A stretch of 64,000 bases of DNA, taken from positions 1-64,000 of the forward strand of contig JAUCBJ010002735.1 of assembly GCA_032718475.1 (NCBI GenBank), in the 5' to 3' direction. Below, in pieces: positions 1 through 64,000 of the stretch. Under the pieces are notes generated by a model. The model ran no database searches and had not been told where the DNA came from. It saw only the letters and a list, made by a program, of their open reading frames with translations. A program made the translations under genes and the position numbers. Within the stretch, counting starts at the first letter, position 1; every line of letters begins with the position of its first letter. The stretch comes from Nemertoderma westbladi (Eukaryota > Animalia > Xenacoelomorpha).

Positions 1-175
1 GTCAGACTTTGTGCGTAATCCCTGCCCTAACGACCGAAGAAATCTTTGCTTTTAAATTTTTTTCTTCTAACTAACTGATTGAACAATTTATATTTATACC
101 AATTTATTTTAAATGTTTAAGTATCCATAGGTTTGAATCCACTAATTTTTTCATAACTTATTATTTCTGTTCCAG
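1..175 (+). other. 3' part of upstream intron (branch point and acceptor)
   Basis: AT-rich sequence, ACTAAT branch-like motif at 141-146, pyrimidine tract and TTCCAG acceptor ending at 175. Confidence 0.8.
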
Positions 176-3100
176 GTCAGTGTCGGAGGAAAGTGGTTGG
201 GAATCTGCCACAGAGTCAGATTTTAACGTTAATTGTCAGGAAGTTAAAGTCGGTCGTGAGGACGCCATGTTAAACCCGTATCCGGGATTAATCACTCCAA
301 TATTCCGAGGCCGGGCTCTAAATGAGAAAAACACATGGAACACACTGCATGACATGAAACCCTTCAGCTACTGGGATGACTCGACTTCCGTTATGGATGA
401 ACGAGACAGACAGTTGGTAATCGCGAAATCGGAACACTTCATAATATATTCGCGTCCGAATGTAGTTCGTGCTATTTGGCAGCGATGCGTGGATCGCTAC
501 GATTTGGCGATTAATACGGAATCTGCTAATTGGTTGGAACAATTTCATCGTGTTTCGTTACCAAAGGCCCCGTGTAAACAAACGAGAAGTTGGAAAATGT
601 GTTTCGCCATTGAGGAAATAGGTCCGCGCTTAGTTGGTACGCATGAGATGTTGCACAGCTTCCCTCCAAGTCACACTGCTTCAATAAGGGAGCACACGGA
701 ATGGTGGGGGTCTGCTGTCTGGGTTGAAAGCTACAGTATGGGAGCCCCATTAGCGAACCTAGTGAGTTGGAGCGAGACACGGGATATATCGCTTGTCATT
801 GATTATGTGACTGCTCCTTGGAGGGATAATGTCGACGCTTCACCGATGGACACTGCGAGAGTTGTGTCTCTCATTTGGGGTCAGGGTTCTATCATATCAC
901 CGGAGGAATCGCATTGGGTCCCCTCCATCAATTCGATTGATTGCTCTTACGAATTCAGTCGATGTCATTTAGATTTTGTTGCTCCTGTTAAAGGGGAAGT
1001 CCTTCCGGCAAAAGTTAGTACGATTTGGTGTCGGGCCGGATGGGCTGACCAGGAATGGTATAAAGGTAAGGAAAATATATTTCAGCCTAAACTCGTCAAA
1101 CTTAAAGAAAGTTGTGAAGATTTACAAGATTCAGGAAGTTTTGAAATATCAAAAATCATGCCTCTAATTCTCGCTCATCACGAAATAATAACATTTAAAA
1201 ACACCCAGCCGTTTCTATGCAATTTCAATACTCTGCAACAATTTGCAGTTGAAGAATTTGCTGTTGAGTTTTTTGCTGAGAATTTCGCTACTGCTGGACC
1301 ATTTCTAACGTACAAATCGGGTCTTCTGGAATCCTTGTTGTGGTATGAGATTCGCGGCCATATTAGGAGCATAGAATACGATGAAAGTAGTTTACTAAAT
1401 GAGCCAGAAGTGGAAAAATGTTACCAAGATAAAGGTCGCAACCAGGTTATTTGTGGTGATGCAAAGGGACCCTTGAGTTTGGAATGGATCTCTCCCAGTG
1501 ATTTACCTCAGGAGCCGTCTATATGCCGACCTACAATGAGTGTTGAAGCGGATTTTTTCTCGATTGCTTTTACACACGATCATTGCATTCGAGGGTATCC
1601 AATGGCATCCACAACTATGGATCATATGGACAAACTCGTCACCTTCCTACGTGAGAAACTCGAGAGCGCAATATCTACCGACTGTTCGCGATTGGAGATG
1701 GCCTCACCTAAACGCGAGGTAGTAACCTCGTGGGGGTTGAGCAATCCATTACCACTCGCTTCGTGGTCCTTATCCACCCAATATAATAAATTGCTGCCAC
1801 CAACTGATAGTTTCGACCTGCACGATGTCATTGTTCGCCTAAATTACCCTGAAATTAGAGAATCGTCACCAGTCTGGGGAAATTGTGATTATAGTAACAT
1901 ATACTGGAATAAAACTGGAAGCAATGTCTCCAGTTTTGATTATGAATATGTACCATATGAATATTACACCACTGATGAGAATGAATCTCAAATTATAATT
2001 CCGAAAGTAACAGTGGAAGGTCGAACAGGTGAAGAGTCTTTTGACTGGTATTCTGTTAATCATCTTGATATCTGCATTGACTATGATCCAGTACATTTTT
2101 CACTTGTACTTTCAAATTTAGACTTCAATCCATACACGTTTATTCCAACTATCTGCGGTAGGGCTGATATAATCAGTAGCGTTCTTGATAAGTGTAAACC
2201 GTTTCTGGTTCATATTGAACGACATACTGCAGATACGTCAGTCTCAGTGAACGAAATGAAACAGGAGTTTGGGAGTTCCCTAACATCTATGTATAATTTT
2301 AGTTGGATTGAGAACAACGCACAATTCCAGACCGCCTCACAGTTTACTCACCAAGAGAAGATCATCAATTGTGCAACCGAGTCCTACGTATCTATGCTAA
2401 ATACTGTAGATAAAATTTGGACTTCTGATGTTTACAGTTGTTGCAAACAGATTGAAGTTTTTTGGAATTCGGTTCGCGATGTAGATATACAATTAATTAC
2501 GGATTATGCAAATGCCTTCGAAGAATTTTCCACTTTGAATGAGCCAACTTTCCTTTCTACTGCTGTTTATTGTTTGAGCACAAGTAATGAACATGAAGAG
2601 TGGCTGCACTGTGATATGATAGATATAGATTATGATGCATTTGATCGCACCCATGTACAATGGAATTGCCCAACATGTGTGAATGCAACATCATATAGTG
2701 TTCGAGTGCAAGGTTGTGGTGTTGTTTTATCAGATGTTGGAGATAAACTCGTTCCTTTTATGGATAAACAATATCCTGACAATGCCATATCATCTGCAGA
2801 ATCTCCTGGTTTGGAATGGGAATATGAAGTAAATGTCTGCCGAATAATTAATGTTGGCGCTGACACTAAACTTGGTGAGCAATGGGAGCATTTGTCTTCC
2901 TTTATTTCTTCAGACTTAAAATTATCATTCGCCAATTTGTTAGATATTTACGAGTATGTAATTATGGCTAAGAAGGATTTTGTCAAGGAATTATGTGCAT
3001 CTCAGGTTGCAGGAGTTTCGTGGTTCCACACTTACGATTCATCGGCCTACTTTCCTAACACAGTTACAGCTGCTTTATTTCAAGATGGTGATCACGGATC

Positions 3101-6100
3101 TGCAGCATTCGTTTCTGAGCGTTCTTGGGGTTTGGGATGTGAATACGAAGCTCCGATGTGGGAGACGCTTAATAGTATTTCTACAGAATGCGATCACAGT
3201 AGACTTATTGTTGGTTATGTGATTAGTCTGTGCGATGATCGATGTACCTCAATTACAACAAGTCAAAATGGATTGGGTTATATAAGAGGTGAATTGTGGG
3301 ATCATGTGGGATTATGGATGCAAAATGAGTCGTCAGAAAATGTGTCTTGGACTATTGAGAAACGTGAATCCCATACAGAATATGATATACATACAACACA
3401 CATCTTCTGCAGTTTGAAGAAAGATTCTTTTAACATTCTTTGGGAGAAGTTAGCGTTTTTAATGGTAACAAATATCTCTTATGAGGAATGTTCCGAATCA
3501 GAATTACTGTTTCATCAATGTGCTGATTGCGCACATCCTTTGCAAGTTTATGGGCATCCTAAAGAAATTACTCCCGAGTTTCATTTTGCGAAGGACTTTA
3601 CTGTAAATAAGTTTTCCGAGCATGTGGGATATACTGATGTAGTGTACTGCTATATACCTTTCACTTCAGTGAAAAGTGGATGGTACATATACCAGGGTTG
3701 TGCCCAAATTGGTGATATAAACTGGAATTTGTCTGGATATCACCAAAGTAAACATTTCACAACCGACCTTTGTAGTTTATCTTTTGAAGGCCTTATCGAA
3801 TATGTTTGCCATGGGGAGTGGGTAGTTGTTCATGGAAATATTACTGAAACGTACATTGCCTGGTCCCACGTCAGTGACTTTGGCCATGTACCACATGATG
3901 TTGTTACAGAAAATTATGAACAATCTGCTGAATTATTGAATGGAATTCGGTTTGTTGAATCGTTTGAATTATGCCAAGGACAATTAAATCAACAAAACAT
4001 TTTGTGGGACAGAGTTGTTTCTTCAAAACATCACGAATATGAGAATGTAGATATTACCGAGGAAAGGTTGACGACGTTTGAAATACAAGGTTTTGAGAAA
4101 GTTCAAGTTTTGGGGTCTGAAATCAGAAATGCCGTGTCCTGGTTACAAGGACAATCATTTGAAAAACATTTGGAAATGACCCATGCAATTGAAATGGAAA
4201 TGTTCTCAAATCTTTCAGTTTGCTTTGGGAGTTTTAAAGCGATTGTGGAAGGAACACATTTGTTCAAGGATGAAGCTGAATGGATATTGGTCTCTGAAAT
4301 TGATTTTCTTGATTACCGTAAAGAATATGCTGTATTTGCTAATATAAACTTCAAACATATTTGTTATAATGGGATTCATATTGATATATTGTACTGCTAT
4401 GGAATTGAAATGTACAATGATTGGGAAAGGGTTGACAATTTGAGATATAAATTAACTTTAGAGACAGCTGGCTTTGAGATAGAAACCCAACCAACATTGA
4501 GTAAGGGCTACAATCTTGTTACTGATCGCGAATTGGCCAGTGCCCATCCTGATTCTTTTGTTTTGATGTGGAATTTTTGCAATGCCCTTGAATTTCAGTC
4601 TCATCAAAAACATTTCGCAGATGTTTCAGAAGATGGGGAAACTCTTCGATCCACACAGGTTACATTTACTTTTTGTTATGGATTCCCAAAATTGGTTAAT
4701 TTTCAGTGGCATTCACTGTCGGACTTATTTGAGGAATTAAACTCCGAGACACCATTTTATGTGGAACATGTAACACCTGCAGTTACAGATTATGCAAGAG
4801 AAATAACTACCACTTACGGATGGGCAATTGGTAATGCATACGAGCAGTGGGAGCAGTTAGGCAGTGTTAATTTCTCTACATCAACAAAGCAAATACAATT
4901 CTGTGCCGCAAATATGTGGAGTTATGCTACTACTCATCCGAAATCTACTGTGTTTGGATCAATTCAGCAGGAATATCAGGAATTCTTCAATTTAGGTCAC
5001 TTGGAAGTCTCCTCGCCATCATCTGAGAATATAACAAGATTGATAATCGAAGGAGATCAAATGCCATTGAAAGTTGATCACAATTTTTCCCAATCGCTAT
5101 GTTGCGCATATCAAAAGGAGGAAGATGACTTCTTGGAGTATTTAGGCACATTGAAAAAGTCAGGATCTGTGTTGGAAATGGCGGGGGGATCTTGGGATTC
5201 AAATTTATTGGAGAATGTGGAAAAAGTTTCTTCATCCAAAGAATGCGGTAGAGGTCTAGTTGTAAGTAATTCATGGTTCAACACAGATATATTTGAAAGC
5301 AAATACATTACTGATTGGGCTGTTTTATGTGAACATAATTTTCATTTCAATAGCACTTATAGAACTTTTGTTACTCAATCTATGGGATTTGCTGATGAAA
5401 GGTTTGTGGTCAGTTGGGAAACGTTATTTTACAGAGATACTCAGTCTATTCAATTGGATGTCGCTGAATGGACCGTGCAATCTGATATTTTCGCTGTTGG
5501 TTCCTCATTTTATACTATAGTTCATGGAGAAAGTGTTATTATAGATATTGAATTAGGAAAGGGATTAGAAAGAAACTTTGAATATATTCAAGAAACTGTT
5601 GTGTATGAGACAGAACCGAAGGTCTATTGGTACATTGCGACGCGATGCAGTTCCGTTGTGTATTGTATGATGGGGATAAACACTTATGATGACATGTGGG
5701 AAACCGTTGGAAACTTAAATATCAGAAAAGATCTTGATTTAGCAAATTGGAGTGGAAAGAAGACAGAAATATATAAAGCCTCGATTACACCTCGAGCCAC
5801 AATACATTACCATGAAATTCATGATAACATTTCTTGGTGCCGACTCGGTAGCTTTAGCGGAGATGTCATCCACCAGGAGGCATCTCAGGGATACGAGTCG
5901 TACTGGATGACTACCGATGTAAGTGTGGTGGCTGCGTTACCTAAAGGCCATGCCTCGATTGAGAGTGAGGAAGAAAGATGGGAGATAATTTATAGTGCAT
6001 TTTATGGGAAGCCTTCAACTGAACAGGTCAACTGGAGCCATTATTTGTTTCAACACAATATAGGTCTTTGTCATGATAAGACCAGTGTATATGGGTGTGT

Positions 6101-9100
6101 TGACAATGGATTTACCTCTTGGGATAAAGATAAAACTATTGAAAAATTTATATCATTTGAGGAAAACGCAGTGTATAGTTGTGATTGGTTCTCAAGTCAC
6201 TTTGGCACAATTGACATGGCAGTTCTACTATGCAAGGCTTCAATAGACGAAGTTGAGGATCGTTGGTATTGTGTGAACTATCAGAAAACCGGATCAGAAT
6301 ATGCTGCTTCTTGCAATGTCGTCGAACATTGTCAAGTATTAATGACTCATTCAAAAAAGCAATACTCATTAAAACATGGTTTTGGAATTAGTCAACGAAT
6401 GAATTGGCACGAATTGGTATCCCATACACCTAGGATTTCGACAGAAGTCGCTCATTGTCTGGATCATGATGAATTATTGTGTTGTGATTATAGAGTTTTT
6501 CAAGTGAGAGTGTCTGCATGTGGTGACTTTGACACCACCAGTCATTGGTTTTCCTTAGGCTTCTTTGATAAGCACGAAGCCAATCAAGCAACAGCTGCAT
6601 TCCTTTCACAACAGTATGAATTAAGTGTTGCAAATTACAGTTACTCGGACACGTTTTGCAATGCTAAAGAGGAAGAAATATTCCTAACGAAAGCAAATTA
6701 TTGGGATGCGCAATATTATTCAGAATATGCTGATTACGATTTAAATCCCTATGTTTCATTTCCAGTCGCGAATTTATCTGTCATTAATGTATGTGGCAAT
6801 GAAATTGAGCATCTGTTACATGAGACATGGTCCATTGGGTCAGTTTTAGTGTCTGCACAAGACAATGTGGAATATGCAAAACATGTATTGTCGTATTCTG
6901 CATATTTTCAACTTCATGGAGGTTCATTGTATTCTACTAGAGGTTTTGGTGATGTTCATCATGTTAAGTGGTGCACTACTGGTTCATTTGAATGGGAATT
7001 CGTTTCTGAAAATGCTTATGAGACTGTTGAAACAACAGGTCTGGATGAGGCTAAAACTAGTAATCGAGCCATTATTCAAGGTGTGTCTAAGTCGGTAGAC
7101 ACAAATAAAGGGGAAATTTATTGTGAAACATTTTATCCTAAAACCGGAACTATTACTTTAGATATTTCCATAGAACGCCACTCTTCATTTAATCATGCTG
7201 TTTCTCACCATCCAAAGGTTTCCGGTGAGTTAATATATAATTCGCAATTATGGGAAATCTGTCACAACATCGAAATCGTCCCTGAAGCTAAATGTTTTCC
7301 AACCTTTCAAAGTGATACCATTACAATACTTTATGGAAGTACATCCACTACGGCCTATATCCGTGGTCAGGAATCTATACTGCCGAATACTTGGGATGCT
7401 GCGTTACTTGTTGAATATTCAAGCTACTCTACAGAATCTGTCGACATATCTGTCCAAGGTCGGAATTTATCAACGGCTGGGTTTTCATGGGATCTCACAG
7501 TAGGCCAAGCAATTACCAATTCTGACAAGTGGAATACCACCGGTGTCTTTCAATTTAGTATGGCTTTTGAAAGTGCTTCTGGGAGTCTAATATTCACCTC
7601 GACTCAGAAAGACATAGTTTCATGTCAATTCTTTGCATCGGGATTCGGAATTCTGGAATCCCATGATGGCGATTTTGAATTTGCTCTCCCTTACAATTCA
7701 GATACAAGAAAAACCGCTTATGTCACATTAAAACAACACTTTGATTTTGGAGGCTTTCACCATACTGTTAGTTGTGAAGTCATCAAATGTAGTTCTGTTG
7801 AGAACAGTCTTACATGGGAAAGCTTGGGATCACATCAATATATATGCACATTAGAATATGCAGATGCCTCTGTTGAGGATGGCTACTTAACAACAAGTTA
7901 CATATCTTCTAGTCAATTGCCATATTGCAAAGCATCCCAGGAAGGTATTTCAGACTGTTTGCAGTTTTGCCTAATTACTCGGTATTCTGGGTTTGGAACT
8001 GAAAGTGCTGCCTTCGAGTTTCAATCACATGATGTTTATATGGGGGTTGTTTCATCACATGAAGCTTGTTGGGGTGAAGCTTTATCTACTGATGAGTTAT
8101 GGTATTTTACACATGATTTTAATATATATGTAACATATGACGAAACCGCAGTAAGTGAACATCACATAAACTACCGAACAACATATAATAGTTTTACACC
8201 AATTCAACTTGCAAATGAATTAATTGAATTTGGAAAAGATTGGCAAAGTTGTGATCTTATAACTGATACAGAATTCCATCATCTTCACTTGGCATCTCTC
8301 CCTTATAAGAAAGAAGGCTGTGAATGTTCTTATGGTTTACGGATTCATGGTCAGTCGATCGAAGGAGAATGTTTAGTATGGGAAAGATTGGGTAATGTAT
8401 TTCATGGAAGTACTGGTAAAGAATGTGCTAGCTATAGTCAAGGGATTGATATTGTCAATTTTTTGGCAAATTACCACAAAGATGTGACAATTTCAAAAAG
8501 TGAAGAGAATGATATAGGTGTATTATGGAATATTGGAAATGTGTTTTATTCACAGCAGTTAGATTGCGACTTTGCAAAATATGAATTATGTCACACTCGG
8601 ACAAGTATTGCTACTGTGCAGCGCCACTCCTGTGTATTTGGGACCAGCATTAATGTCAGAGATCAGTGGAGTTCAACTAAAGTGCTTGCAGTAGAAATGT
8701 TGCTTGAAACCGCAAATCTACTTATTTGCAATGTGCAACATTTTACTGGTCATTTTCCTCATCAATTAGTTGAACACGGATCTCCAAATGTTTGTAGATT
8801 GGAAGAAGACTGGTATTCTGCCGAGCTGTTGTACAGAACAGAATTTCATCAGGACAGAGCTGCCATTATATCACAACATTTCAATTTGGAGAAAGTTAAA
8901 ATTACTTTGAATGAAGGCGTATTAACTGCAGCAGACGAGTCTTATATTTTCTGGCATGCTGCTGATGATTTCTTATATTCAGTTAACGATGAATCCGCTG
9001 ATACATTTATCGAGTATTGGCATCTTCAAAACTCTGCGAATTTATCCAAAAGCATAAATATGTGCTCAGCTGATGATGGAGATTTTTTTATTGATTATCT

Positions 9101-12100
9101 TAAGGCAACTTCCTTAGATGGCATTTGGTATGAAACTGAGAGTTGCAAATTTATTTGCCATTCTGAACAAAGTTTCCAAGCTAGTGCTACATTCGGTTTA
9201 GTTATATTTGGTGATGCAGTTTTGTGTCAGACTGGGTCTAAATCAATGCAGGAGCTTCTGCTGAAAGAAACTCAATGTGATTTTGCTAATGTGTCAGTTA
9301 TTGTAGATATGCATTCTTGTCAAATGCTCTCATCTATTGTTTATGGTGCGGCTCAAACGGTTGAAGAAATCTTCCTTTTTGGAGAAAAGTTCGAGGCGAA
9401 GCAACTTTACTATGAGAATGCCAATACCTTTGATGTGGTTTGTATACTTGGAACAACTAAATCTGGCAAAGTTATGACGTACGGCAAAGCCGAAATAAGT
9501 AGTTCTGTATGGCAACATCTGGGACAATATAATCCGATCGTTCGTACAGAAGAATATGCCACCAAAGATACTGAGCTTGGGTTCTTACAAGGGAGATTAA
9601 CTTCTTTTAGGCCTATTATGTATCGTATAGTATTTGATGAGTTTGAAATTGCCACTTGGGGAAGGTTAGATTTATTATCTTCTCGTAGTGAAGGTCTAGA
9701 ACAGGCAAACACCCTCCAGGAACACGATCTTTATCAGCCAGCTCTTTTAAAATCATTCCATCGTTGTCATGGAAGAGAAATCATTGAGCATGAGGATTGG
9801 TCATGGACAGAAACCTCTAGGTATACTTTTTACACTGAAACTGCCGACTGGATCGTTGAGGACATTAAATTTGCATGCAACTACGAGAAAGGATCAGAAC
9901 AAATGAGGGCATTCTCTAGTGATAGTGTTGAAGAAGTATCATTTAGTTTTCTGTCTTATGAATTGAAGAAATCACATTACAATGAATATGCACATTTTCA
10001 ACAAGTTTATATACCTCTGAATGAGAAAGCTGATAGACACAGTGTAATCATTTTTGGAATTGGGATAACAACAAAGTGGAAATGGTCGAATGTATCCGCA
10101 CTTGATACGGATTATACGGTATATAATGGAAGTGTTTTGCAACATGAGGCTCACCTCCATGGCAATTTAAATATTGAATTCACTGTTATATGGGGAGATA
10201 GCCGGATTGCTTTCGGAGAACCCTACCAGCGTTTAGATTCTTTCGATCGCTTTCATGTTATCCTTGATGAAGTTGATGTGATAACATATGGTCCAACCTT
10301 AGAGAATGTAAACACATGGGAATTTTGGCAGGTTTGTGGATTCGGTATAGTTGATCAATGGCAAACCGAATCGCTGCCAAAATTTTCATGCAATTTTGAG
10401 GCCGATTTTGCTACTGCATCAACTTTTTGGGATATGTCAAAATGTACCTTGAATAAATCTCAAGATATTACAATGGGATTTGGTTATATAACCACTTCAT
10501 GGGTAGATGAGCAATTAATTTTCTTTGACTCCACATTTTATGCCAATGCCATGTTTATTGTTGAGCCTGATTGGTTCTCTGGAAAGTTTGCGATATCCAA
10601 ACCAACCGCACATGGGCATACTATCCTCATGGAAGAGGTGTGGTTTAGTGGCAATGAGTTCCCTAAAGGCGAATACCACTTATCAGAAGTCGATTATTCT
10701 GAAAGTTCTGATATTCATTGGTTCACTGCCGGTATATTAGAGTCTGCTTTGTGTGGAATTGGAATTCAAGAGCAATTTATTGATAATTGGAAAACATTAG
10801 AAGAACTCCAATCGCACGATTATGTTTGGGCAGCAGCTGTAACTATTATGGAAGGTGTACCAGAGCTCTCGCTTGTTGGACAGAGTTATTCAACGATGTG
10901 GGGACTAAATTCTTATGACGACCAGAAATGGGACTCCAGCATGGAATTTTTCAGTTTTGTTATGCGAGATCAAGTTTCATCTACTTTGGAATCAGAATTT
11001 ATATCTAATTTTTCCACTAGGGAATGTTTCACAACATTCGGCCAATATTTACATCAGGAATCCGACTGGGAATCTGCGGTTATTTTTCAGGCCTCTGATA
11101 TTCCTGGTGATAGGGTCAAAACCATCCATGACTATTTTCAACTATCCCAAATTTGCGATAAAAAACAGATTGTCTGTAATGGATACGGGTTATATACCGA
11201 AGAAACTTGGCAACACGTTTTGGATTTTGAGAAATGTTTGATGACTGACAGAATATCATTGGAAGTATCTTGCCAGAAGTTCGAAATAAATATTGGTGTT
11301 CACTCCAATTCTGAATGGTGCATGCCACAAATTGATTCATTCCAACAGTTTGTTGATCACGACCAACCATTAGAAAAATTACAACTAGATTTCGAGTACA
11401 CTTCAGTAGATATTTTCTCAGTTAGCTTGGTGCAGCATGCGATGTCTTGCAAAAAAATTACATACGGGTTGCCTTGTTCCAATTTGAATAATTGGGATTG
11501 TGTCTTTGAGTTTGAAGGAATGGAAGCTCACCTTGCTTCTTGGATAATTGAAGAATTTGGATTACAAAGCAATGTAGTCAGTATGAGGGGAAGTAAGATG
11601 GGTTTTGCTGAAGTTGATCACCATTACTTTCATCTAGAACATGTATTCCCCTATACTAAAGACGCACCTCAGTTAGATGTATCCTCAGTGAGCATGGAAA
11701 CCGGCTTTCACCCTGGCATTGTGCAATGCGACTGGGAATGCATTCAAGGGAGACATATTCATAACGATATTGAGGCTGAAGGTGTCAGAGAACAAATAGA
11801 TTTCCATTACAAAACCGTCAACGCTATTGAAAATATATTTTATTATTCCCCTAATGAACACTACGAAACGTCGTTTGGTGTGCCATTGTGTAACCACATA
11901 ATATCATTATTCACCACCGACTGGGAAAGTGCGATGCTTTCATGGCCGGGAGGTCTGGAAATGGAATACTGCCATGTTTCACTTCAAGAAAGCTTTCAAG
12001 AATTTGATGCTGAATCAATCCAGACACTTGTTCATGGCTGGGAGATTAGTGGTGAATATGAGTATGATTTTGCGTGGCCTTATAAGAAGGAAGTTCACAA

Positions 12101-51000: not shown

Positions 51001-54000
51001 ACACCAGGATGTACAGTACGGAACTTCTATTGAAAAATGTATAGACTGGGGTACTATTATGGAATCAATGCCATTTCAACACAACTTTGAATTGGCATTA
51101 TTTGAAAAGGCGGTTTACAATCATTATGAATTTGGAATTTGCGGTGAAGGTGTTGAGTTATGTTACGGTTATTCCGATATAGCAAATCTTGCCTTGGAAT
51201 GGAATTTATATACTTTATTGGATAGACCTGCTCGCGAATACGTTGGTGCGGAAACGTACACACCAGTTGGGGGCCAGCACACCATTCGCAAGGATTATTC
51301 TCTATGTTTGGAAATGTCAATGTATATCGATTGGTTGAATGTGGATACATTTTCTACCCATTCAATGGACTCAGTTTTCTCGAATGTTCACCGAGAGGTT
51401 TCATTCGACCATTACAATATGTCATCTTACTTGGAAATGTGTCAAGCTGAACTGTCATCTGTAACATTTATTAATGTCAACTTGATCGCTATTGAAAAGG
51501 AGGATATAAACCTAGAGAATGTTGACATATGCGACTGTGATTATCTAATGACAAGAACAACTGACATCGTTAAACCTATTGTATATGGATATCATCAATC
51601 AACGATGTGTAAATGGAACTCGGTTGACTTTACTGGCTATGAGCTGCTTTCTGTCGAGGCTGGATGGCAGCTTGAATTACATCACTCTTACGCTACCATC
51701 ACCAGAGCAACAGAGAGTACGTCCTATAACATTGCGGACCAATCGCAAGAGTTTATCGTTTGGGATTCTCTTTTCAACTCAAAGATTCTTTCCTACGAGA
51801 CCAACACTGCTGATGCGTCTGCGCATTCATCTTGGCACAGGTGTGAAACAACCGGGAGATATACCGTTAGAGGTGAATACCAGTCGAGTGCTACACCATG
51901 GAATCAGGTCTGCGAATTGGGCGAGGCTGTACCAGAGGTAGCCTATATGTCGTACGCCGCTGATATGTCTCGCAACAGTAGCCGGATAAAAGAGAGTAGC
52001 GAGTGGAGTATCCCAGATGAGACGGTATTCACATTAGACTGGGAATATTTACAGCACATTCTGAAAGATAATCAACAGAGGTAAGATTATATATGCAACT
52101 AGAACTAGAAAGCTATAAGTTTAAATTTTAAATGGTAAATTATAAACCTTATATGGTAGGTATGTGCAGTAGTAGTACCACCAACTAAAACCAACAGTGA
52201 GCTAGACATGTCATTCATGTGTCAATCATAATGAGTCACCTGACTGACATGCACGAACTATTCCATCTCACCTTCTTTTTGTACTGTTTATTCATTCAAA
52301 CCGGTGCTGGCCAATATATCATCCATTACAAGAGGGATAAGATAATGAAATGCAGGAATATCAACATTAGCAAGTACACCCCAGACAGGATATATCAGCA
52401 ATGGGTGTGACTGCCTCATTATTAATTTTGTGAAGATAACACTAACTGGCCTTGTGAAATACTGGGGATGAGACCTCGTAAACTTCGAAAGAAATGTTCT
52501 TTTTTCTGGCCCTCGCTTCTTACACTTCAGATAATTGGCCTGGAATCGATAGCTGGTTGCCTGGTTACCCTATATCAGTGACCTTCATGGATACCTCTAG
52601 GTCTACTGTACCCCAGCGGTTTGTACTGCAGTGAGCTGACTCTGCGCCACACATTAGTAAAGTAAAGTGTTTGTAACAGGAAACACCAGAGGCGACCCGA
52701 AGTTTCCTCTCTCTTGGCTGTTACATATAAGACAGGGAGGGCGCCACACGTACTCCCAAGGGTGAACACCAACACACCGTAGCTGTCCAACCCAACCGAA
52801 CCCAGGTTAGGTTCCCATATCGCTGGGTTGGCCCACCAGTTACAAAATTGTAACTACCTCTATACGGTATCGAACCCGGGACCTGCCAGCTACAAGCAAG
52901 GCGAGTGATCACTCCAGCAGATACTGGTTCTTTGGTAATTTCCTAGAATATGTATAAAAATTCAAAAAACAGTTGGGAATTGGCGACCCTCCACCCACAC
53001 CTACACTGACATTAACGATACGATGGAATATGTACCACACTGTCGAAAGTGCTTAGACAACCCGTGTCTAAGTCGAGACACACTGCCCCAGTCTCTCCCA
53101 TCTCTGAAATCTCCCTGATATTTTTGCACCGACGTCGTTTATTAATACCGAATTAATTTAAAATCATCTCTGCCATCGTCTTTTTTTGTTTTAACAAATT
53201 GATTTTTTGAATTAGTTCCATAAATATGTTGAGTTTCTAGTTACAAGGGATAAAAAATCGAGTAGAATGATTGTAGATATAATGGGTACACAAGCAGCAA
53301 ACCCTGCTAAGCCAAAAATATATGGAAATTCATAAAAAATACAATCAAAGTATTAAATTGAAGAACCGCATAAGTTATAGGACGATTTACTACTACTACT
53401 ACTAGGTCGAGCGAACTCGGACAGTGGAAACGGTTGTCCACGGCTACGCTTTCCTTGTGTTGTTTGCCAGAGAAGTAGATCTGGTATGACCTCTTCTTTA
53501 CTTCTCCATCAGTGCCCACTGGATCTTAGTCTGCGTTCACGGAGGGTGGTTGATACAGGTGGTATTGTACCATAAAGCTCGGCATTTGCCATGTATTGTC
53601 TCCAGCTGATGTTTAGGACTGCCCTTAGTAGTCTTGTGTAGCAACCATCAATTCGTTGCCCAAGTGATTTCGTCAGTGTCCAGGTCTCACCCCCGTATAA
53701 AAATACACTTTCCACTGTGGCTCGAAATAACTTAATCTTCAGGTGCCTGGAGAGATCTGATTTCCAGATGGTATCTATTTTTGATGGGGCTGCCTAAGCC
53801 TTTGCTTTCCTAACTTCTATGTCTTTTTTGCTACTCTCTATACATTATTACCATACATCATTAACTTAATTTATTTTCGCATAATAAAAATGCGGATTAC
53901 CTGTGTATCATGCATGTATCTTTATCGTGATAACAGTATAGCAAAATAAAACCATCGCAACAAATAATATAGAGATTAATGGATGATACATTATTATTTT

Positions 54001-57000
54001 TCTATTTATTTCGAATAATATTTATTTATACCTCATGTAGCTTCAGTGTTTTCTTCTAAATTTAAATAATATACAAAATTATAAATAGTTAAAATTGATT
54101 TGTATTTTATTTATATATTAATTAGAAATATTTTACTTTGCAATAAATTTTTGACAAAAATTAATTTTGTATTTATTTTATTCAGAGCAACTGCGGGTCT
54201 TGCTATGGAAATTCAAAGACCAAAGTCTCGGGTGAACTTTCGATCGTGTTGCATCGAGGGAGCTCATATGAACAGCTACATAGAGTGGGAGAGCACAGAG
54301 ATGCTCACATTGCGTGAGCGAACAAATGATTACACCAAACTCACTGAGGAAGTCCTCCAATCCGCCGCCAAATCCCAACCCCACGTCGCCTCATCTTGGC
54401 TTTACGTCCAAGAGGATCTTTGTGATGAGAATTACAAATTCGCAGAAGATTTTTGTATTTCTAGCTGTTGGAAAGAACAAGTATCCGTGTTCTACAGTCG
54501 TGAACTCTCTACCAATATTCAAACAAACTTGGCATCTTCTTACTGTGCTGCTGAATTGTATGATATAGAGTGGCAGAAAGGGGCTGATCTGCGCCACCCA
54601 GATAAAATGTCTGTAGAGGTTTCCGAAGAGTACAGATGGTTGAATCGGGGAGTGAATGAACACGCGGACCACCTCTGGTGCCATTCATTGCAACAGTTGC
54701 AGAGCTATATGTATGAAACAATGACGCAACATGTCGAGCATGGTCGAGTACTTGATTATGCAGATACAAGTATGATTGGAACCCAGATTGAACACGGCCA
54801 ATTTATTTACAAACCTATATTCCATGGATTCTCACTGCTAACTGATACTATTTGGCAACAAGTTGTTGACTTACGGGCAATAAAACGCAATGAGGAGAAA
54901 GGAATGATAGTTGAGCAAGTTAGCAACGTCCGTTGCAGTTATGTTACCAGCTGGGGGGAGAGACGCAATGTAGCAAAACAAAATATTGGCAGGGACATTT
55001 GGGATGTGATAACTAACCGTGGACATGTCAGCCATGGTCTCGAAACAGCTACATGTTCCACTTCTAATGAAATGCAAGGGAGAGTGTGCAAATATGATTG
55101 TCTTGTTCAAGGTATTCACTCGAATCAAATTACTAGTTGGTTTGTTACTGGCCGGATCACACCAACTCAAGTTACAAGTGCTGGATCAACATTATATTGG
55201 CAAACTGGTCGTCATGGTGTCCATTGCCTTGCTGGTGCTGTGTGGGCAAATGCACAGGAATTTTTGTTGGATTATGAGTGGCAGAATGTAGATGAATATC
55301 ACACCCAGAAGGCCTATATTGATTTTGCATCATTGGCCACTGAATATGGGATCTGGCACAGACCTCATGTTGCTAGTCGCTATTGCCAGGAGGGTCATGC
55401 GATATGTATAATTATGAAATGGGACCACTCAACAGATTTCATTGCTAGTACCGCATCGTTTGAAGCAACAAATGTTTTGACAACAGGAGAACGAGTATGT
55501 TTCTATCCGTGCTTGTCTTATTACTCGACATGGGCGGCTTCAGCTATAAACACACCCGAACTTGATTGGGATATCGTCAATCCTGTCCAGTATTTTACTC
55601 CTTGTAAATATAATGTCAATGTTGCTGTAGATGAATTCATTTATGGGAGAGTCAAGGAAACAAGTGGTCGATTAACAAATGGTCAAGGAATTCTAGAACG
55701 CATAAGTTGGTCTTCTACAAGGGAATTCGCCTTCACATACACATCGATAAACGTTGGTTACACTATTGAGGATTTGCAGCTGGAAAGAGACCTGTCTGGC
55801 AAAGGTTTTTCAGTTTATGGATTATCTGATACCCTTGACTCCAGCTTTACTCAATGCGATATGTATTGCAGTGAGCAATATATGTTTGAATGGGCTCTTT
55901 TGAATATTCAAAGTCTTTCGTTGCAACAAAATATTCGCATTTGTTGGGGAAAATATCAGGGTGAGGCTATTTACAATGACATATTGTGGGAAAGAGCTCA
56001 TATGTTCATTGCGACAAAAACGGGCTCCGAGACGGCAAATTCATTTGGTGATGTTCTACAGAAGGCGAGATGCACGGAAGATAATATTTCTTTGTCACTA
56101 ATTTCGGGTATGGATGATTACAGTGAATTATTTCATCAATGTGATACTTTTTACAATTACGTTGTTGTTAAGCAATCTGCAGATGTATTGTTTGAGCAAC
56201 AGCAGGTTGGCCGCACAGCAGTGGTTTCCAGGGATGTCAATTTAGGGAATTCGTTGCAAGATGAAAACCATTGGGAATATGTATGTAGTATGATCAGAAA
56301 ACCAGCCAGGGAAGATGCTGCTCATTTGAAGTTTGAGTTTGTAGGATTGTTTGATCATTTTGTTCCTCAGAGGACATTGATTTGGGGGAATTCTCAGCAT
56401 GGTTCATGTGAGGATTATGATCAGCTATCAACTGTAATCGATCAAGTATTTGTTATGGAACATGCGGAGAGTAAAACCTTAGAAATTACTTCCAATCAAT
56501 ATTCCTTCTTTTATTATCGAGAATTTGCTTCATATGAAGAAAACGAAGCTGATAATTTGGAGTCATTAGAGTGTACAGAGTTGCAAAGAAATCAAGAGGA
56601 AGCTTTATTATCTTATGAACTTCAATTTCAATATTATGTCGCGAATATTTACACAGCTAATACAAAATCCAACTATAGAGATAATATTACATCTGAAAGT
56701 TTTGATGTATCTATTTTATTTAGATTGCAGAAACTAAACTTGGAAACATCCCAGATAAGTACTATTTATAGTTTATTTGACGAATCATCAATTATCTCAT
56801 TTAAGACCCATGGGATAGCTTTGGAATATGGGGAACACTGGGATCATGCATATGACATTTGTGGTTATACCACAGAACATGCTTGGGATGTCACATCATG
56901 GCATCAAGAGAGTGAATATTCTCGAACAATAATTAGCAGAGAATTGAATCATTCCACACTGGGTGTATTTGATTGCATCATGGGTCACATAGAACAATTA

Positions 57001-60000
57001 ATTAAAAAACCTGTTATATTAGAAAGTGCAACATCACAATTTGAATACCATTATTTATTTGAACAAGCAAACACGTATTCATATTCCATTTATGGAAATG
57101 CTAGTTACATTGAGGTAGAATGGTATTCTTGCAGTTCTACCCATAATGATTCGAAACATCTGGAAATTGCTGGAATTAATATGGAAGGAACTCTCCAAAA
57201 ATCAACCGGGGAAATTCGTGACAAAGTTAGATTACTATATGGAGATTTTGGCAGTGAAATTATCCAGTGTGATTGGGTTGATGTTCTATTCAATGCTAAA
57301 CGTGAGACAGAAATAATTGATTCGTGGGAAGTCAGTCATCATTACAGTTCTCAAGTGATGAAGAGTACACTATTTGGATTTCCAGATTACAGTGGTTACG
57401 AGTTTGACCAAGCTGAAGATATAGAGATCCACTACTCCATTATGACACTCGATTATACAGAGATAGAGAGGTTCCATGGAATAGAAGGCATCATAACTCT
57501 CCGTGTGTATGGTACATCTTCATGTGATCAATTGGAAACAGTATGGGAGTATTCGCATATTAGATTCGGCTTTGAGAAACCTAAGGAATACTCTGCAGTT
57601 GCATCAGCCTTGTATTTTTCACGTCATAATGTTAAACATACTCAAGATATTTTAATGTGCCAAGCTACCCAACATACATGTCAACAATGGCAAACATGTT
57701 ACGAATTTTTCAAGCATCACTTACATTTAGCTACAATCTGTCTGACAGAAGAGACTACAGGATTGTCTAGGGGTTTCAATAAATATCAAGACTTAGTCCT
57801 CCAATCTGGTGCAAAAGCCATTGTTGAGTTGGATACAGAAATTGCCTTTCAAAGCTTTCACTTCAACCCAGAGCGAGATGTTGCTTCTCTCGAGATCATA
57901 AAAGAGGCAAAAGAATTTGCTGCAAGTAAGAAACAAGTTATTCTCAATGGGTCTTCTGTAGATGCAATGCAGTATTGGGGATTTGTTGATGATTTTGATG
58001 GTGTGCCGCGAAAATCACTCGAATGGAGTCTAGAAAGTTCTGAATATATTCACGAATACATCGTCAGTGCGAATACTATGTGGGGAGGAGCGAATGAGGA
58101 ACATTCACCAAAGTTTTTGAATTTAGAAGAAGTCAGCAAAGATACTCATAACAATGTGGAGTATGCGACATCAATAATGTTTGAAATGGGATTGGCAGAA
58201 TGTGGTAAAGAAACCACATTGAATAATTATGCTCGTGCACAAGAAATCCCATGGGAAATATGCGATAACTTTATTTCAGACTTGCAAATTCCTGAAAAAT
58301 TATCATCAACTGAAAATATAATGACAATATTTTCTATATGTGGGAAATCAACCGTGCATATAATCGCCTATGGTGATATAGATAGTTCATTCGAAGTCTG
58401 GGATACTTGTTTTGATTTTTATAAAGAAGCTTACAACGTTGACAATGCTATTGAATGTAAAATTAAATTAGATTTACATACAAGTTATTTAGAACTTAAC
58501 TTACAGTTTAATTCCAGTTATGAGAGCATTATTCAGTGGGATCAAGTCTCATTCGTAGATGAAGGGTTCCATGTCGAAAGTGCAGAATGCTATTCCTATA
58601 ACCATTATTTACATCCACCACTTTATGGAGAAGAATATAAAATGTTTTGTCATCCAGTCATAGATTCCATTTCCACCCCATTGGAAAATGGTCATTTATA
58701 TGAAAAGCGTAAAATTACCCATGAATTTGCGGAATTTAAGATTGATGTCCCGGCACGTGATATCCAAGAAACAGGTGGAGCACTGACAATTATCGCATGT
58801 AGTGATGAAACAATGATACCGTGGTCTAATTTAGTTCCATTTTCATCACAAGAATGTCAGTTTGAGGTTCTTTCAATTGCAGAACACTTCGTCCATTTGG
58901 AATTTGGTAAATTGTCAGGGTATAGTTATCACCAATGTCTTGCTGAAACCCCTTCATGCATTGTTTTCTTTGAATCTGCTGATAATTTCGAAGAAAAACA
59001 TGCAGAGAAAGTTTCCTGTAATCTCCGTACAAATATTACAAATTGGTTTTTCGGAAATTCATCGTTTGTAAAAGCTTGGGGGATGTGTTCACTTTCAGGA
59101 TCCACATGGCACTTCACCTCTTCACTTGTTATTGATTTTACTTGTGAAAATGCCTTGTTGATAGAAGGAGGTTGCTTCCAAACCCGTGCAACTCAATCAA
59201 AAGATTATGAATGGTGCATGGGAGATGCTGTATATCATGAATGGGATTTTGAATTTCCTATTCATCTCGATACTGGAAAACTCAATTGCGAATACATTTC
59301 ATCAGCTATGGAACATGTAGGATATACAATGCGTGATAATGTGGATGGTACTGTATTCAATGGAAATCCCATTACATTAGTAATGGAATGGAATGTTGCT
59401 GAAGATGTTTACTATGCATCATATCCTATAGAATATGCCTACATGATGGACAATATCATTGGAAGATTAACAGCATCCCTTTCACATAGACCTTTTGTAA
59501 TGTCTTGCGAAATGATAAACACAAGTGGATTTTGGTTAAATGCAATGGATTATAGAGCTGCTCAACAAATTTCTATAACTGCGAGTGTGAAAACTGAAAG
59601 TTGTCCATATTTCCAAGCTGGAGTCACTCGTGATTCACAATGTGGTCTAGAAATTGTTAATGACATTACCTGGGAAAACGTTGAAGACGTTGATGTTTAT
59701 CAAGTAGAGAGTACTGTGAGCATTAGCAGGGTCATTGACTATGTTCACCATGATTTTAGATGCAACTTAGTTTGGGGTAAAGGAATTATTAGTGATGATG
59801 CGGATCAATGGCAAAGTGTTACACAATTCATCCATAGTGAAGCAGACTACGAAGAGGCTGATGTAGATGTGGAGTGGTCCATTAAGCATAAATATTTCGG
59901 TACCTCAACTTATGTAAAGCAATGTTATGAAGAAATAAATTACCAAGATTGGTTTTGGGTCCATTCATTTATGAAAAATCAATACCAAAGTGATAGTGCG

Positions 60001-63000
60001 TATGAAATGACACAGGAATATTTAAACACATTTACCGCAAAGTCTACAGGCATAAGTTCCTGGGCTTCGTCATTTCCTGATAATATTGGAAGCGATTGGA
60101 CTTATATTGATGGCATATTTTACACAGGATATACTACTGACTACTTAGTACCAACCGAGAGTATATATATATTTAACAGGGAATATGTTGAGAGTAACTT
60201 TGGTCTTAAATTATGTTGTGCCAAAGTTGAACATTCAACTTGCTCATCGCTTGGTGACCTTAATATTGACAATTTGAATGAATCAGCTTGTTGGAAAGTC
60301 GAACATGAACAATTGGAGACTTATTATGATAAGAATTGGCAAAATGTGTATGGAAATATTTCGAAATCAGAATTGAATTGGGATAACTGCTATCATGCAC
60401 AATATTCCACTCCGTCGATCCATAATGCATTATTTGTGATTCATGAAAAAGAAAATCTTCAAAGTTATCTATATGATCAAACATTGGAATGTGGATCATC
60501 TCAAGTTACAGAGCTTTGGTTTGATACAACCGAATTATTTTCTATTCCTGTTAAAGGGTCTGAATCGGCATCTGAAGGACTACATGTTCACTTATTTGCT
60601 AACAAATACAGCAGTCTTAAATCCAATACCTGGGGCATTCATGACTCATCTACAACTGAAGTATGGGATTACACATCAAATATAAGTAAGCATACTCAGA
60701 ATACTGAGATAGCTAATTCAAACTTTGAATCTACATTTATTCGAAAGGGTGACACATATTTTCAAATAGTTAATGGTAATATTATAATTAGTGCAATAGA
60801 TTGGGAGTCAACAGTTGATCTAGTTTCAGAGCTCCATTATTGTCAACAAGATTTCGAATATGAAGGATTTACAGGTCTCTATGAAAATGGAATTTGCAAA
60901 TCGATGGTTCAGGGTTTTGCGATGAACAGTGACTTTGATTACAGGTATGAAACACTCTCATTTTTATCAACAGAGTCATTTCAAAAATCAAAGACTAGTT
61001 GTAAAGTAGATTATGGTTTAGATAAACATTTAGAAACATTGAACACACAGGTTTATGGAGCATCCTTTTCATCTGAAATTGAATGGGATTCAGCTTCTGA
61101 GTATACAAATGATTCACACATCATCAACAAATTAGGATCATCACTTGCAGAAATGTGGCTTCCTTTGAATGTCAATATTTCTCTGCCAGTTTGCTGGGGG
61201 GCTGCCCAGATGATAACTCATGGTCATCTTGAAACTGTTCAACAAGTGGTGTCTCGCGAGTTTGCAACTGATAGTGGTTTTCTATATGACATTGATGTTA
61301 AACTTGAAAATTCAAATGAAACCATTACGGCACACAATATTTGTCTCGCTTCATTACAACGATATGATTGGATGTATGCAAAAGATGTTTCTTTTGGATT
61401 TGAGGGTGGAATAGGATATGCCAGTTTAAAATATTCAACATTTTCATCTGATGTACATGCCTATCGTGAAGAACTGTATTGCAGCCCAGAAGAAACTACA
61501 GATATTTGTGACTTTGATTTTGTTTATTATGTTGACTTTAAATTGGGACATATTGTTCAAGCTCATTGTAGTATCGATATGGGTTCTTGCGTATATCATT
61601 ACTCCGTAAAACAATACCCGGTGTATGGAAATTGCACAGTTGGCGTAGAGGACTACATAACGGCATTGCCGCTTGAAGAATTGGATATCTGTGAAGAGTA
61701 CTTAGATCATTCAGAGGCAGGGCGTGAACATTTTGTATATGTAGGATGGTCACAATTTGTTACGCTTGGTGATGGGAAGTGTGAAATATACCATCAAGGT
61801 ATTGTTAACATTGAAGAGTTTCGAAATATAAAGTACAATTTAGAAAATGCCATACCAGTTATAACAGGTGTAGTTACAACTAGTACCGAACAAACCGTTG
61901 TGAGCTTGCTATGTTTTGGTAATGTAAATGAAATCATATTTTATACAGTAAACAAGTGGACAGCAAAGGTTCCAATGGACTCTGTATCCGTAACAGAAGA
62001 CAATTTTTCATTAAGTACGGGCCATCAGTCATCAACACAGGTTTCTGTCAATATGGAAATACCAGGACATATTTATACCTATGAAGTAGCTGACGAAATT
62101 CATAAATTCATACAAGGAACGATTAATACTTCGATTTCGGTGCAACCATCTACATTGATTAGAAATATCGATGTGGCAAAGGCATCGGTTTTGGGTTGCA
62201 TGATAGTGGATGAAATTCAATGGATAAATACCTGTGATATGTTTGGGGGATTTTGGTTTTCAGAAGTGAAATGGGATATTTTTGATGAAGTAAATCTAAT
62301 ACAAAATCCTGTTATCTATAAGGAATCTACAATGGGTTTGGAGCATGTGGAATATTTCTTTCCAATTTGGGAAGAAAGTGGAGTCCATTCCGCACCAGAT
62401 TTTGAATGTAGCACTGAAGAAGTACATGATACATATTTGTACCATGGAAGAATGGAGCCATCATCATATGATTTGTGCTTCAGTAGAGTTCAAAGTACAG
62501 ATTGGTTTGAAGCAAAACACTTGTATATTGACAACAGTTTATACACTGTTCTTGAAGTGGAAATTAACAATTTCGAGGCAAGATATACCTCTTTGAAACA
62601 ATATGTAAATGGATATGCCATTATGGAAGCCATGACAATTTACTATAATGATTATGAACACTTAAAGGTGGACTCTTATGATGTTGAAAATGCTTTTCTA
62701 AATATAGAAGGAACTACAGCAAACAATTATTGTGTCGAAACTGAAGGTAAAATATATGCCAATGGGATGGTTTTAGGAACCAATTGGGAAACATTACAAG
62801 ATGTGTATTATAGTTTGGATAGGGACATTGTATCTTCATATTCTCAAGATGGTTTTACTTACAACATAGCTAATGTGTCATGGGGTATGAAAATGTTGAG
62901 TGTTTGTATAAAAGAAGCTGTTCTTGATGGGTCAGAAGTAACTAAAGAATTTTCTGAATCGCTTAATGATGCCGCTAAGGCGACAATGACTATTGAAACA

Positions 63001-64000
63001 TTTATCAGAAACACAGGTTACATCTCAGATGTCACCATATATGGTTTAGGAAGCGAAGTCAGAACATCTTGGGAAACATTAAATGAGTATACACCGCTTG
63101 TATCCAGTCAAATTGGTAATTATGTAATTGAGTCAAATAAACATTACGCCGATTCGCAATGTGATGTTCTTTATGGCCAGTGTATTGTCATGGATATTAC
63201 AGATATTTGGGAAAGTATTTATGATAGAAGGGTTGAATCTAGGTTTGTTGAGAATACTAGTACCGCGTATCAAACATTACCTGACTTCGTAATGGCTCGG
63301 ACTTCTTTGAATAGGATTTATGGATCTGGTTTCGTGATTGAGATCTCCTGGGAACTGCCTGGGTATTTTGATACTAAAACACACGACACAATGCAAGCCA
63401 ATATAACCTACTTATCAGCACCAAACGATGTTTTAAGTTGTGCAAGGAAGGATTTGATATGTGGCTGTGAGTTTCTTGTTTCGGGTGAACAATGGCAAAA
63501 TGTTTCAACTTTGGATGACAAACTAAATTCTATGGAAAATGCTGGCTGGTCCATTGAATATATGGAAAAGAGAAATTGCACTATTGACCAATACTTTCAA
63601 TCATGCCACTCCATAGATCACATTATTGACTGGAGCTACATTAATGAATGGCGTACTAAGCTAGATTATGAAGAATTTGAATTAGAATACGTTACAGAAA
63701 TTATTGATCTTAATTTTGCTGCAGTTTTTACACCTCGGATTAATAATCTTATGGAAGTTAGTGATTTTGGATTTTGGGAAGGAACTATTTCATATTCAAC
63801 AAAATATGACACTCGAGAGCAAGCCAATATTATACTTGAATCATTTTATAAATTTGATTATGCAGTACCATCTGTAGTGGATAAATTCGGTTCAGCTCTG
63901 GTGGTTGTAAATAATTGGGACAGTTTAAGTGACCTAAATATTCGCATCTGCACTGAAACTACATCTTATTCAACCGCAGTTCTCCAATATATTGTGGGCT
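176..64000 (+). CDS. Giant multi-exon gene (partial at both ends) encoding a >=20,000-aa protein of degenerate ~47-49 aa Trp-anchored repeats; family unknown
   Basis: Five exons joined by canonical GT-AG introns with matching phases; the same peptide repeat runs through every exon and across every splice junction; coding length in window 14889+143+175+35237+9815 = 60,259 nt. Confidence 0.85.
15065..15222 (+). other. Intron (158 nt, phase 2)
   Basis: GTAAGT...tttcattttAG; AT-rich. Confidence 0.88.
15223..15365 (+). CDS. Small exon B (143 nt), not in ORF track
   Basis: Translates in phase as (R)PEISIKDYADVTLHQEWHLGVVNILKAPVYGDVIIDGVIFDSVQHTE(G), containing the repeat motifs DYADV and VYG; donor G|GTGAGT at 15366. 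Confidence 0.88.
15366..15820 (+). other. Intron (455 nt, phase 1)
   Basis: GTGAGT...ttttcctttcAG; very AT-rich. Confidence 0.88.
15446..15497. repeat. AT-rich tandem repeat, 18-nt unit (ATTTGTAATTTTTATTAT), ~2.8 copies
   Basis: TTTGTAATTTT recurs at 15448, 15466 and 15484. Confidence 0.85.
15821..15995 (+). CDS. Small exon C (175 nt)
   Basis: Lies within ORF 15793..15999; (G)YECQYLRAFSQNWSEW...QPAPDYADV(K). Phase-1 acceptor matches exon B; donor AA|GTAAGT at 15996 matches the phase-2 acceptor at 16843. Confidence 0.88.
16052..16075. repeat. Short perfect inverted repeat (11-bp arms, 2-nt spacer)
   Basis: TTTAGTGTATT-aa-AATACACTAAA. Confidence 0.7.
16356..16440. repeat. GC-richer island with ACTCCG hexamer repeats; possible DNA transposon/MITE remnant
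   Basis: CAGGGTTCCGGATCC...GACTCCG...ACTCCGACTCCGACTC within an otherwise very AT-rich intron; no matching second end identified. Confidence 0.35.
16844..18062 (+). CDS. Giant exon D, segment 1 (acceptor to first frame break)
   Basis: G|TTT AAC GAT ACA... is in frame with ORF 16890..18065; repeat motifs present; ends ATG ATT TGA. Confidence 0.85.
18064..26631 (+). CDS. Giant exon D, segment 2 (+1 frame relative to segment 1)
   Basis: ORF 18070..26634; this frame is open from 18061; same repeat; no AT-rich intron-like gap before it. Confidence 0.85.
26633..52080 (+). CDS. Giant exon D, segment 3 (+1 frame relative to segment 2)
   Basis: ORF 26582..52084 overlaps the previous ORF by 53 nt; ends at donor AG|GTAAGA (52081), whose TAA is the ORF 'stop'. 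Confidence 0.88.
52495..52925 (-). mobile_element. Putative tRNA-derived SINE (3' boundary uncertain)
   Basis: Minus strand reads ...GCTGGAGTGATCACTCGCCTTGCTTGTAGCTGGCAGGTCCCGGGTTCGATACCG..., with a Pol III B-box (GGTTCGATACC, 52866-52876) in a tRNA-like head, followed by a GC-richer body with several hairpins. Confidence 0.6.
53388..53840 (-). mobile_element. 5'-truncated, decayed non-LTR retrotransposon (RTE-like LINE) 3' fragment
   Basis: Minus-strand translation SSKKDIEVRKAKA*AAPSKIDTIWKSDLSRHLKIKLFRATVESVFLYGGETWTLTKSLGQRIDGCYTRLLRAVLNISW...RERRLRSSGH*WRSKEE...RSRGQP resembles the post-RT C-terminus of RTE-type ORFs; in-frame stops at 53794-53796 and 53509-53511; ends VRVRST* with a (GTA)n microsatellite tail at 53388-53404. 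Confidence 0.88.
54186..64000 (+). CDS. Giant exon E (>9.8 kb, runs off the window; missing from ORF track because no stop is reached)
   Basis: Acceptor ttattcAG|A; frame starting at 54187 reads ATAGLAMEIQRPKS... and still reads TSYSTAVLQYIVG at the end; no terminated ORF in this frame appears in the track; same repeat motifs (e.g. LGNSLQDENHWEYV). Confidence 0.88.

Follow-up and report, generated by a model that had tools for sequence, protein, structure and literature searches.

A predicted giant protein with a strictly spaced 189-residue super-repeat in the genome of Nemertoderma westbladi

Proteins of more than 20,000 residues are few, and the ones checked consist of recognisable domains. 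Nebulin, at 600-900 kDa, is composed of helical repeats of 31-38 residues that carry the motif SDxxYK and are grouped in sevens (PMC9140763, 10.1101/2021.10.06.463400). The polyketide synthase PKZILLA-1 comprises 45,212 aa encoded by 136,071 nt in 17 exons (10.1101/2024.01.29.577497). The stretch of DNA considered here, positions 1 to 64,000 of contig JAUCBJ010002735.1 from the xenacoelomorph Nemertoderma westbladi (64,000 nt, hereafter the window), carries what is, judged from its sequence, a very large real gene, whose repeat is newly defined and strictly spaced. No family is in reach for this repeat. The predicted product of at least 20,086 residues would belong among the giant repeat scaffolds.

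The chain resembles nebulin in its giant size and in its short degenerate repeats, which have few anchor residues and are grouped in super-repeats (PMC9140763, 10.1101/2021.10.06.463400), and is unlike it in having units of ~47 residues grouped in fours, a mass of at least 2.3 MDa and a stricter unit length. The nebulin motifs SDxxYK and WLKGIGW each have 0 matches in the 20,086 residues, and homology was not detected. Size class, super-repeat logic and very large exons are shared with titin/connectin and its invertebrate analogues. Unlike titin (PMC12198301), the chain has no Ig, Fn3, kinase or PEVK segment in view, and terminal domains may lie beyond the window. PKZILLA-1 and -2 are likewise giant eukaryote genes with few long exons, but encode enzyme domains, of which there are none here. 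PKZILLA-1 is the larger, so the length in view is no record. A full-text search returned no paper settling the largest known exon, and the 35-kb exon described below is not claimed as a record either.

The chain consists of about 425 degenerate units of ~47 residues with the core pattern hhYG-x8-W-E/D. A chain search anchored 395 units and implied another 30, with a mean length of 47.18 residues and with 353 of the 394 spacings at 45-49; this search is biased toward 47 residues, and independent tests were weighted instead. Tryptophans recur at spacings of 47, 94 and 95 residues, W-W pairs 47 apart numbering 71 against 12.8 +/- 3.5 (maximum 27) in 200 shuffles. The pattern G-x8-W is six-fold enriched (149 against 24.7 +/- 5.2, maximum 39, again in 200 shuffles). 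Four units make up an A-B-A'-B' super-repeat of 189 residues, in which unit A reads hh(Y/F)G-x8-W-(E/D)-x-h-x-x-F and unit B reads h-W-(G/S/C)-x10-W. Both unit types are succeeded by an E-x-A motif, and conserved columns are few per unit.

Exact 189-residue spacing is kept through two regular runs of super-repeats (Table 1), the second offset by half a super-repeat relative to the first, and persists across introns. Residues 189 apart are identical in 13.8% of cases in the first run and 11.9% in the second, whereas lags of 188 and 190 give 5.0-5.8%. Of 25 super-repeats of the first region, 24 can be mutually aligned without a gap. Identity between super-repeats remains ~13% at 1 to 8 steps and adjacent copies are no closer than remote ones; the array is therefore old, and its length has been maintained. 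Self-BLASTP of the chain returned the diagonal only, with no internal repeat matches. A profile built from the first run was applied to 14 tiles free of training residues and matched 12 of them with E values of at most 3.9e-5, the unmatched tiles being residues 1-1000 and 10001-11000 (best control E 0.045 for reversed and 0.07 for shuffled tiles).

Irregular regions were also seen. A single register break, a 131-residue gap, lies near residues 10293-10424 (window about 32500-32900), and a Pro/Lys-rich patch near residues 10870-10960 (window about 34250-34500); together these may form a hinge that separates the regular runs. Residues 1 to ~600 (window 176-1900) fit the repeat poorly and proline reaches 4.8% in the first 1000 residues, so the N-terminal region may be near.

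Open reading frames (ORFs) were listed with the standard code, from stop to stop, at a minimum of 150 aa over the whole window, and 5 of 5 are on the plus strand. Between 26600 and 52000 the coding frame contains 0 stops, against 431 and 980 in the other two plus-strand frames. Once two extra bases are removed, the five plus-strand frames and two small exons form one reading unit of 20,086 codons with 0 stops, whose predicted product has a mass of ~2.31 MDa and an isoelectric point (pI) of 4.6. Neither end of this unit is in the window and its length is a minimum; the start of the gene is upstream. A sequence-only reading of the window had proposed a titin-scale unit of about 20,000 codons, with both ends unseen and all parts joined by splicing. 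Its scale and unity hold, while two of the supposed splices, at 18060 and 26596, are extra bases. The four internal introns are all GT-AG, with phases that agree across the junctions, and do not fall at one fixed site within the repeat. The last of them (52081-54185) was placed by sequence and repeat register only. The GT-AG introns and retroelement remains mark the stretch as eukaryotic.

The two extra bases were identified by comparing contigs from four DNA sequencing runs with window positions 14000-33000. Runs X1, X2 and X3 derive from two studies, X2 and X3 being from one sample and X1 possibly the source of the window, and run X5 has no coverage at either site. Contigs of three of the four runs (X1, X2 and X3) are each one base shorter at 18060 and at 26596. 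A single X2 contig covers the whole of 15465-33000; it carries 118 substitutions, and of its 10 gap letters 8 fall in introns and 2, at these same two sites, in coding DNA. Neither join shows a convincing intron. The joins at 18060 and 26596 are single-base assembly insertions and not splices; 16844-52080 is therefore one exon of 35.2 kb. The repeat register is continuous across both sites. A 91-nt intron at 18052-18142, which also joins the frames, was dropped, as the reads reveal an error of one base and the 30 residues concerned are required by the register. Two one-base insertions within 19 kb suggest that the source assembly contains further false frameshifts. In the intron at 15366-15820, an 18-nt tandem repeat (2.7 copies, 15446-15494) is the place where the contigs of all three runs break.

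That the locus comprises separate genes, never one translated chain, or is a decaying relic seems very improbable. In its favour, the gene model derives from DNA sequence, and 18 of the 30 coding differences alter a residue (the 30 are those among 40 differences listed, with 171 more existing). Among 6 sequencing-run entries listed, none was RNA, which carries no information about expression. Against it, register continues past all four introns and the two corrected sites. A 189-column super-repeat profile from which copies spanning junctions had been excluded was applied to pieces covering each small exon, the two sides of the last intron and the segments that bridge the corrected bases; 9 of 9 pieces had their highest score at the column predicted by the gene model (rank 1 of 189). 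The remaining 12 differences are silent, where 7.1 +/- 2.3 would be expected (P 0.032), and no difference creates a stop. Apart from the two indels that open the reading frame, the long X2 contig has none in coding DNA. The coding differences point to mild purifying selection.

Table 1. Coordinates of the features assigned in the 64,000-nt window.
Feature	Coordinates	Strand	Basis or remark
3' end of upstream intron, acceptor AG at 174-175	1..175	+	sequence, 28.6% GC, pyrimidine tract
ORF	75-15068	+	ORF list
Coding exon, 14,889 nt, model residues 1-4964	176..15064	+	ORF and splice model
27 super-repeats, exact 189-residue spacing, residues 3942-9044	11997..28768	+	profile and lag analyses
Intron, 158 nt, phase 2	15065..15222	+	GTAAGT...TTTTAG
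Small coding exon, 143 nt, length of one repeat unit	15223..15365	+	super-repeat profile fit, rank 1 of 189
Intron, 455 nt, phase 1	15366..15820	+	GTGAGT...TTTCAG; between-run indels located here
Small coding exon, 175 nt	15821..15995	+	rank 1 of 189 in the profile, at the predicted column
Intron, 848 nt, phase 2	15996..16843	+	GTAAGT...CTTTAG
ORF	16824-18065	+	ORF list
Giant coding exon, 35,235 nt after setting aside two extra bases	16844..52080	+	run contigs, unbroken repeat register
Extra assembly base, false frameshift	18060..18060	+	base missing from X1, X2, X3 contigs
ORF	18061-26634	+	ORF list
ORF	26579-52084	+	ORF list
Extra assembly base, false frameshift	26596..26596	+	base missing from X1, X2, X3 contigs
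19 super-repeats, exact 189-residue spacing, residues 13709-17299	42761..55638	+	profile and lag analyses
Intron, 2,105 nt, phase 2, with mobile-element remains	52081..54185	+	GTAAGA...ATTCAG; both flanks rank 1 of 189
ORF, open at 3' end	54085-63999	+	ORF list
Coding exon, open at window end	54186..64000	+	ORF and splice model

The sequence-only reading had described an unrecognised repeat and the absence of Ig, Fn3, spectrin, cadherin, EGF, kinase, PKS/NRPS, transmembrane and low-complexity mucin segments. The repeat is present, and the 47-residue unit and 189-residue super-repeat now define it; these domain types are indeed absent. A Pfam scan of 7 pieces gave only 2 sub-threshold rows and no known domain, an NCBIfam scan of 6 pieces gave 0 matches, and a Pfam scan of 47 super-repeats found no family matching more than 1 of the 47. 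Unlike giant polyketide synthases and nonribosomal peptide synthetases, the chain has no KS, AT, ACP, C or A domains in Pfam or NCBIfam. Unlike mucins, dumpy and cadherins, it has no S/T/P-rich tracts, patterned cysteines or membrane segment in view (best 19-residue hydropathy window 1.84). The motif of Xin repeats, GDV-x4-W-x-FE, has 0 matches in the chain, and there is no Pfam match. Profile searches of PDB reached best E values of 0.42, 0.3 and none, and neither these nor Pfam matched blade profiles of beta-propellers (tachylectin, hemopexin, kelch, WD40).

Broader searches bear on whether the chain is a far-diverged or unannotated member of a described invertebrate or protist giant-protein family beyond the searched libraries, which we consider decidedly improbable. 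A profile of 47 super-repeat rows, run against 1.84 billion representative proteins, matched 1 protein at E <= 0.001, and that one is bacterial; a full-length homologue would be expected to accumulate score over many copies. In ESM Atlas the best value, 0.78 to CBM96 clusters, is in the chance range, and the irregular region gave no usable match. Among metagenome contigs 9 pattern matches were found and 0 confirmed, no stretch of the alignment being conserved enough to serve as a query. The possibility draws on the nature of the libraries, which are thin for giant eukaryote proteins, so that absence of a family is unproven, and on the methods, which included no profile-profile or AlphaFold DB comparison. 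Word-based protein searches returned 0 of 1,743 and 0 of 3,572 candidates, a weak method for long proteins. A full-text literature search, with subscription papers mostly and supplements outside its scope, found no account of this repeat; the one '189-residue' lead concerns a tardigrade ferritin (10.64898/2026.10.08.757488).

The sole profile match, P0001, is a collagen-binding LPXTG surface protein of Bacillus cytotoxicus (E 8.5e-6). Like the giant chain it has a 47-residue period and the same spacing of G, W-E, L/F, P and E-x-A. It scores 48.4 bits, whereas the highest score from 5,000 versions with permuted positions, of which 2,767 were reported, is 11.0, so the order of its residues matters. 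Unlike the giant chain, it is a bacterial adhesin of 648 aa with about five near-identical, low-complexity acidic copies; because the copies are near-identical the score is inflated, and it is also the best of a vast library. P0001 has 1 related locus in 185,579 species genomes, and by BLASTP its best E value against the giant chain is 0.01. The likeness is probably convergence or chance, an unexplained resemblance without demonstrated homology. The repeat itself (residues 330-560; L001 3001-3561) is an unnamed 47-residue acidic repeat of a Bacillus cereus-group adhesin.

Within the chain, charge has its strongest period at 23.63 residues in both regular runs (153x and 46x median power). Hydrophobic residues peak most strongly at 2.22, with no dominant peak at 3.6, and small residues at 11.8. 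Cysteines number 514 and are scattered, with no repeat column above 21% Cys, and sequons are at chance level (146 against 155.5 +/- 10.2); there is therefore no sign of a disulfide-patterned secreted protein. AlphaFold2 gave the 189-residue tetramer (47-row alignment) a predicted local distance difference test score (pLDDT) of 44 and a predicted template-modelling score (pTM) of 0.22, and the 94-residue dimer (93 rows) values of 77 and 0.18 with no secondary structure called. The dimer model had 0 rows in Foldseek and 0 matches at Z 2 or more among 48,161 chains in VIA-align. As modelled, it fits neither a helix nor a compact fold and reads as an extended, contact-poor chain, and a failed fold would look identical.

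A titin-like string of compact domains, with the 94-residue dimer as a beta-sandwich or the 189-residue tetramer as a four-bladed propeller of hemopexin- or tachylectin-like 47-residue blades, is improbable. A length of 94-95 residues is the size of Ig and Fn3 domains and 4 x 47 that of a four-blade propeller, and W-W spacings of 47 and 12 recall tachylectin as a lead. These likenesses meet spacings of 46-49 throughout with no linker at any domain border, long runs without indels, and a phase slip of half a super-repeat between the runs. The Pfam, PDB and pTM results given above count against compact domains as well.

The reading favoured here, tentatively and at somewhat less than even odds, is that the chain runs extended along a cytoskeletal polymer of periodic structure, keeps a fixed residue register with it and serves as its ruler or as a scaffold that stabilises it. 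The sequence-only reading had suggested an undescribed class of structural or scaffold protein, and such a role is the best supposition here as well. Length has stayed exact while sequence has drifted to 13% identity, and insertions would therefore not have been absorbed by loops, which fits a chain laid continuously against a lattice. The chain of at least 20,086 residues would lie stretched on that lattice with few or no loops, in a beta-like shape and probably in the cytoplasm. Kept residues (YG, W-E/D, F, E-x-A) and alternating charge patches may anchor it. Nebulin binds along actin filaments, and the mode of action of the chain would be nebulin-like, though the chain is no nebulin. Binding of extended repeats by beta-strand addition is a known mode, and the tandem beta-zipper repeats of SfbI, BBK32 and FnBPA resemble the chain in being extended, in binding a row of partner modules and in that spacing matters (PMC4412574). 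They differ in being short bacterial fibronectin-binding segments, with no Pfam match here, so the analogy is mechanistic only.

Any partner is speculative, with microtubules as first candidate. Tubulin monomers and dimers are spaced at 4 nm and 8 nm, and an extended strand rises ~0.34 nm per residue. At this assumed rise the periods of 11.8, 23.6, 47.25 and 94.5 residues become 4.0, 8.0, 16.1 and 32.1 nm, and the nested register series extends to 64 nm. Filament proteins with 16 and 32 nm repeats occur on central-pair microtubules (10.1101/2022.01.23.477438). The values of 4, 8, 16 and 32 nm equal tubulin monomer, dimer and central-apparatus spacings, hence the candidate. The microtubule-filament motif PGPGxY has 0 matches in the 20,086 residues, and net charge is negative. 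A bolder version is unlikely, namely that titin and nebulin are joined by a third kind of giant filament ruler, this multi-megadalton beta-extended chain, which would zip onto a microtubule-like lattice. Such a ruler would hold nested registers of 8, 16, 32 and 64 nm, span up to ~7 micrometres in the part in view, be encoded largely by one 35-kb exon and be unrelated to any described family.

Several points weigh against a ruler or scaffold. The match in nanometres depends on the assumed rise, as 0.17 would give 8 nm per unit and 0.117 an actin-like 5.5 nm; with a different rise a different lattice would fit, which makes the partner a guess. The analysis found neither a partner of the chain nor a transcript, peptide or terminus. 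Acidity extends over the full length of the chain (net -6 to -10 per 100 residues, pI 4.6), and the surfaces of tubulin and actin are acidic too, which makes binding awkward. Composition is order-promoting (~14% F/W/Y, 2% P (2.1%), FoldIndex +0.07), and therefore unlike that of a typical free disordered chain, and Chou-Fasman averages are balanced at 1.01 for helix and 1.03 for strand. AlphaFold2 yields ribbons on failure, DSSP output is empty for both models, and these were judged without coordinates. Finally, nebulin repeats vary from 31 to 38 residues (10.1101/2021.10.06.463400), and a ruler therefore needs no such strictness.

Such strictness would be demanded per residue by a continuous sheet, and a self-made beta-rich fibre is a somewhat doubtful but serious contender. 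It would be either a continuous meander or solenoid, in which each unit supplies four strands of ~11.8 residues, or a set of chains zipped side by side, serving as skeletal, cuticular or matrix material. Such a fibre agrees with the 11.8-residue period of small and aromatic residues, with the 2.2-residue period of hydrophobic ones and with a composition rich in aromatics and poor in proline. Acidity may suit a mineral or matrix role, and the N-terminus, the site of any signal peptide, lies beyond the window. Against it, in a low-power covariation test of 46 super-repeats, no residual correlation appears at lags 23, 24, 47 or 94 and there is no clear hairpin centre or stacking signal; in a similarly weak test on 103 rows, the top mutual-information z of 6.7 compares with null maxima of 4.7-6.2. 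A solenoid would be expected to show more than 13% identity and more than a few conserved core columns, and the cysteines are scattered.

The last intron also contains remnants of other elements. A decayed C-terminal fragment of a long interspersed nuclear element, presumably RTE-like, occupies 53509-53793 on the minus strand (94 codons) and adjoins a short TAC run; it has 30 unnamed relatives at 51-64% identity. At about 52860-52900 a transfer RNA-like motif was seen by eye, possibly the remnant of a short interspersed nuclear element, with no match in ARAGORN or Rfam. Scans of the window for transfer RNA genes, Rfam families and long DNA repeats found none.

A repeat that is invisible to self-BLASTP would lead annotation pipelines to miss or split such a gene, as the two assembly errors do here. 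In genomes without annotation, the profile of the super-repeat may be used to look for a family that is so far hidden. That the spacing stays at exactly 189 residues while identity is only 13% indicates that selection acts on length and not on sequence. Such selection predicts a measurable lattice spacing, and the partner of the chain could be tested for with a short recombinant piece.

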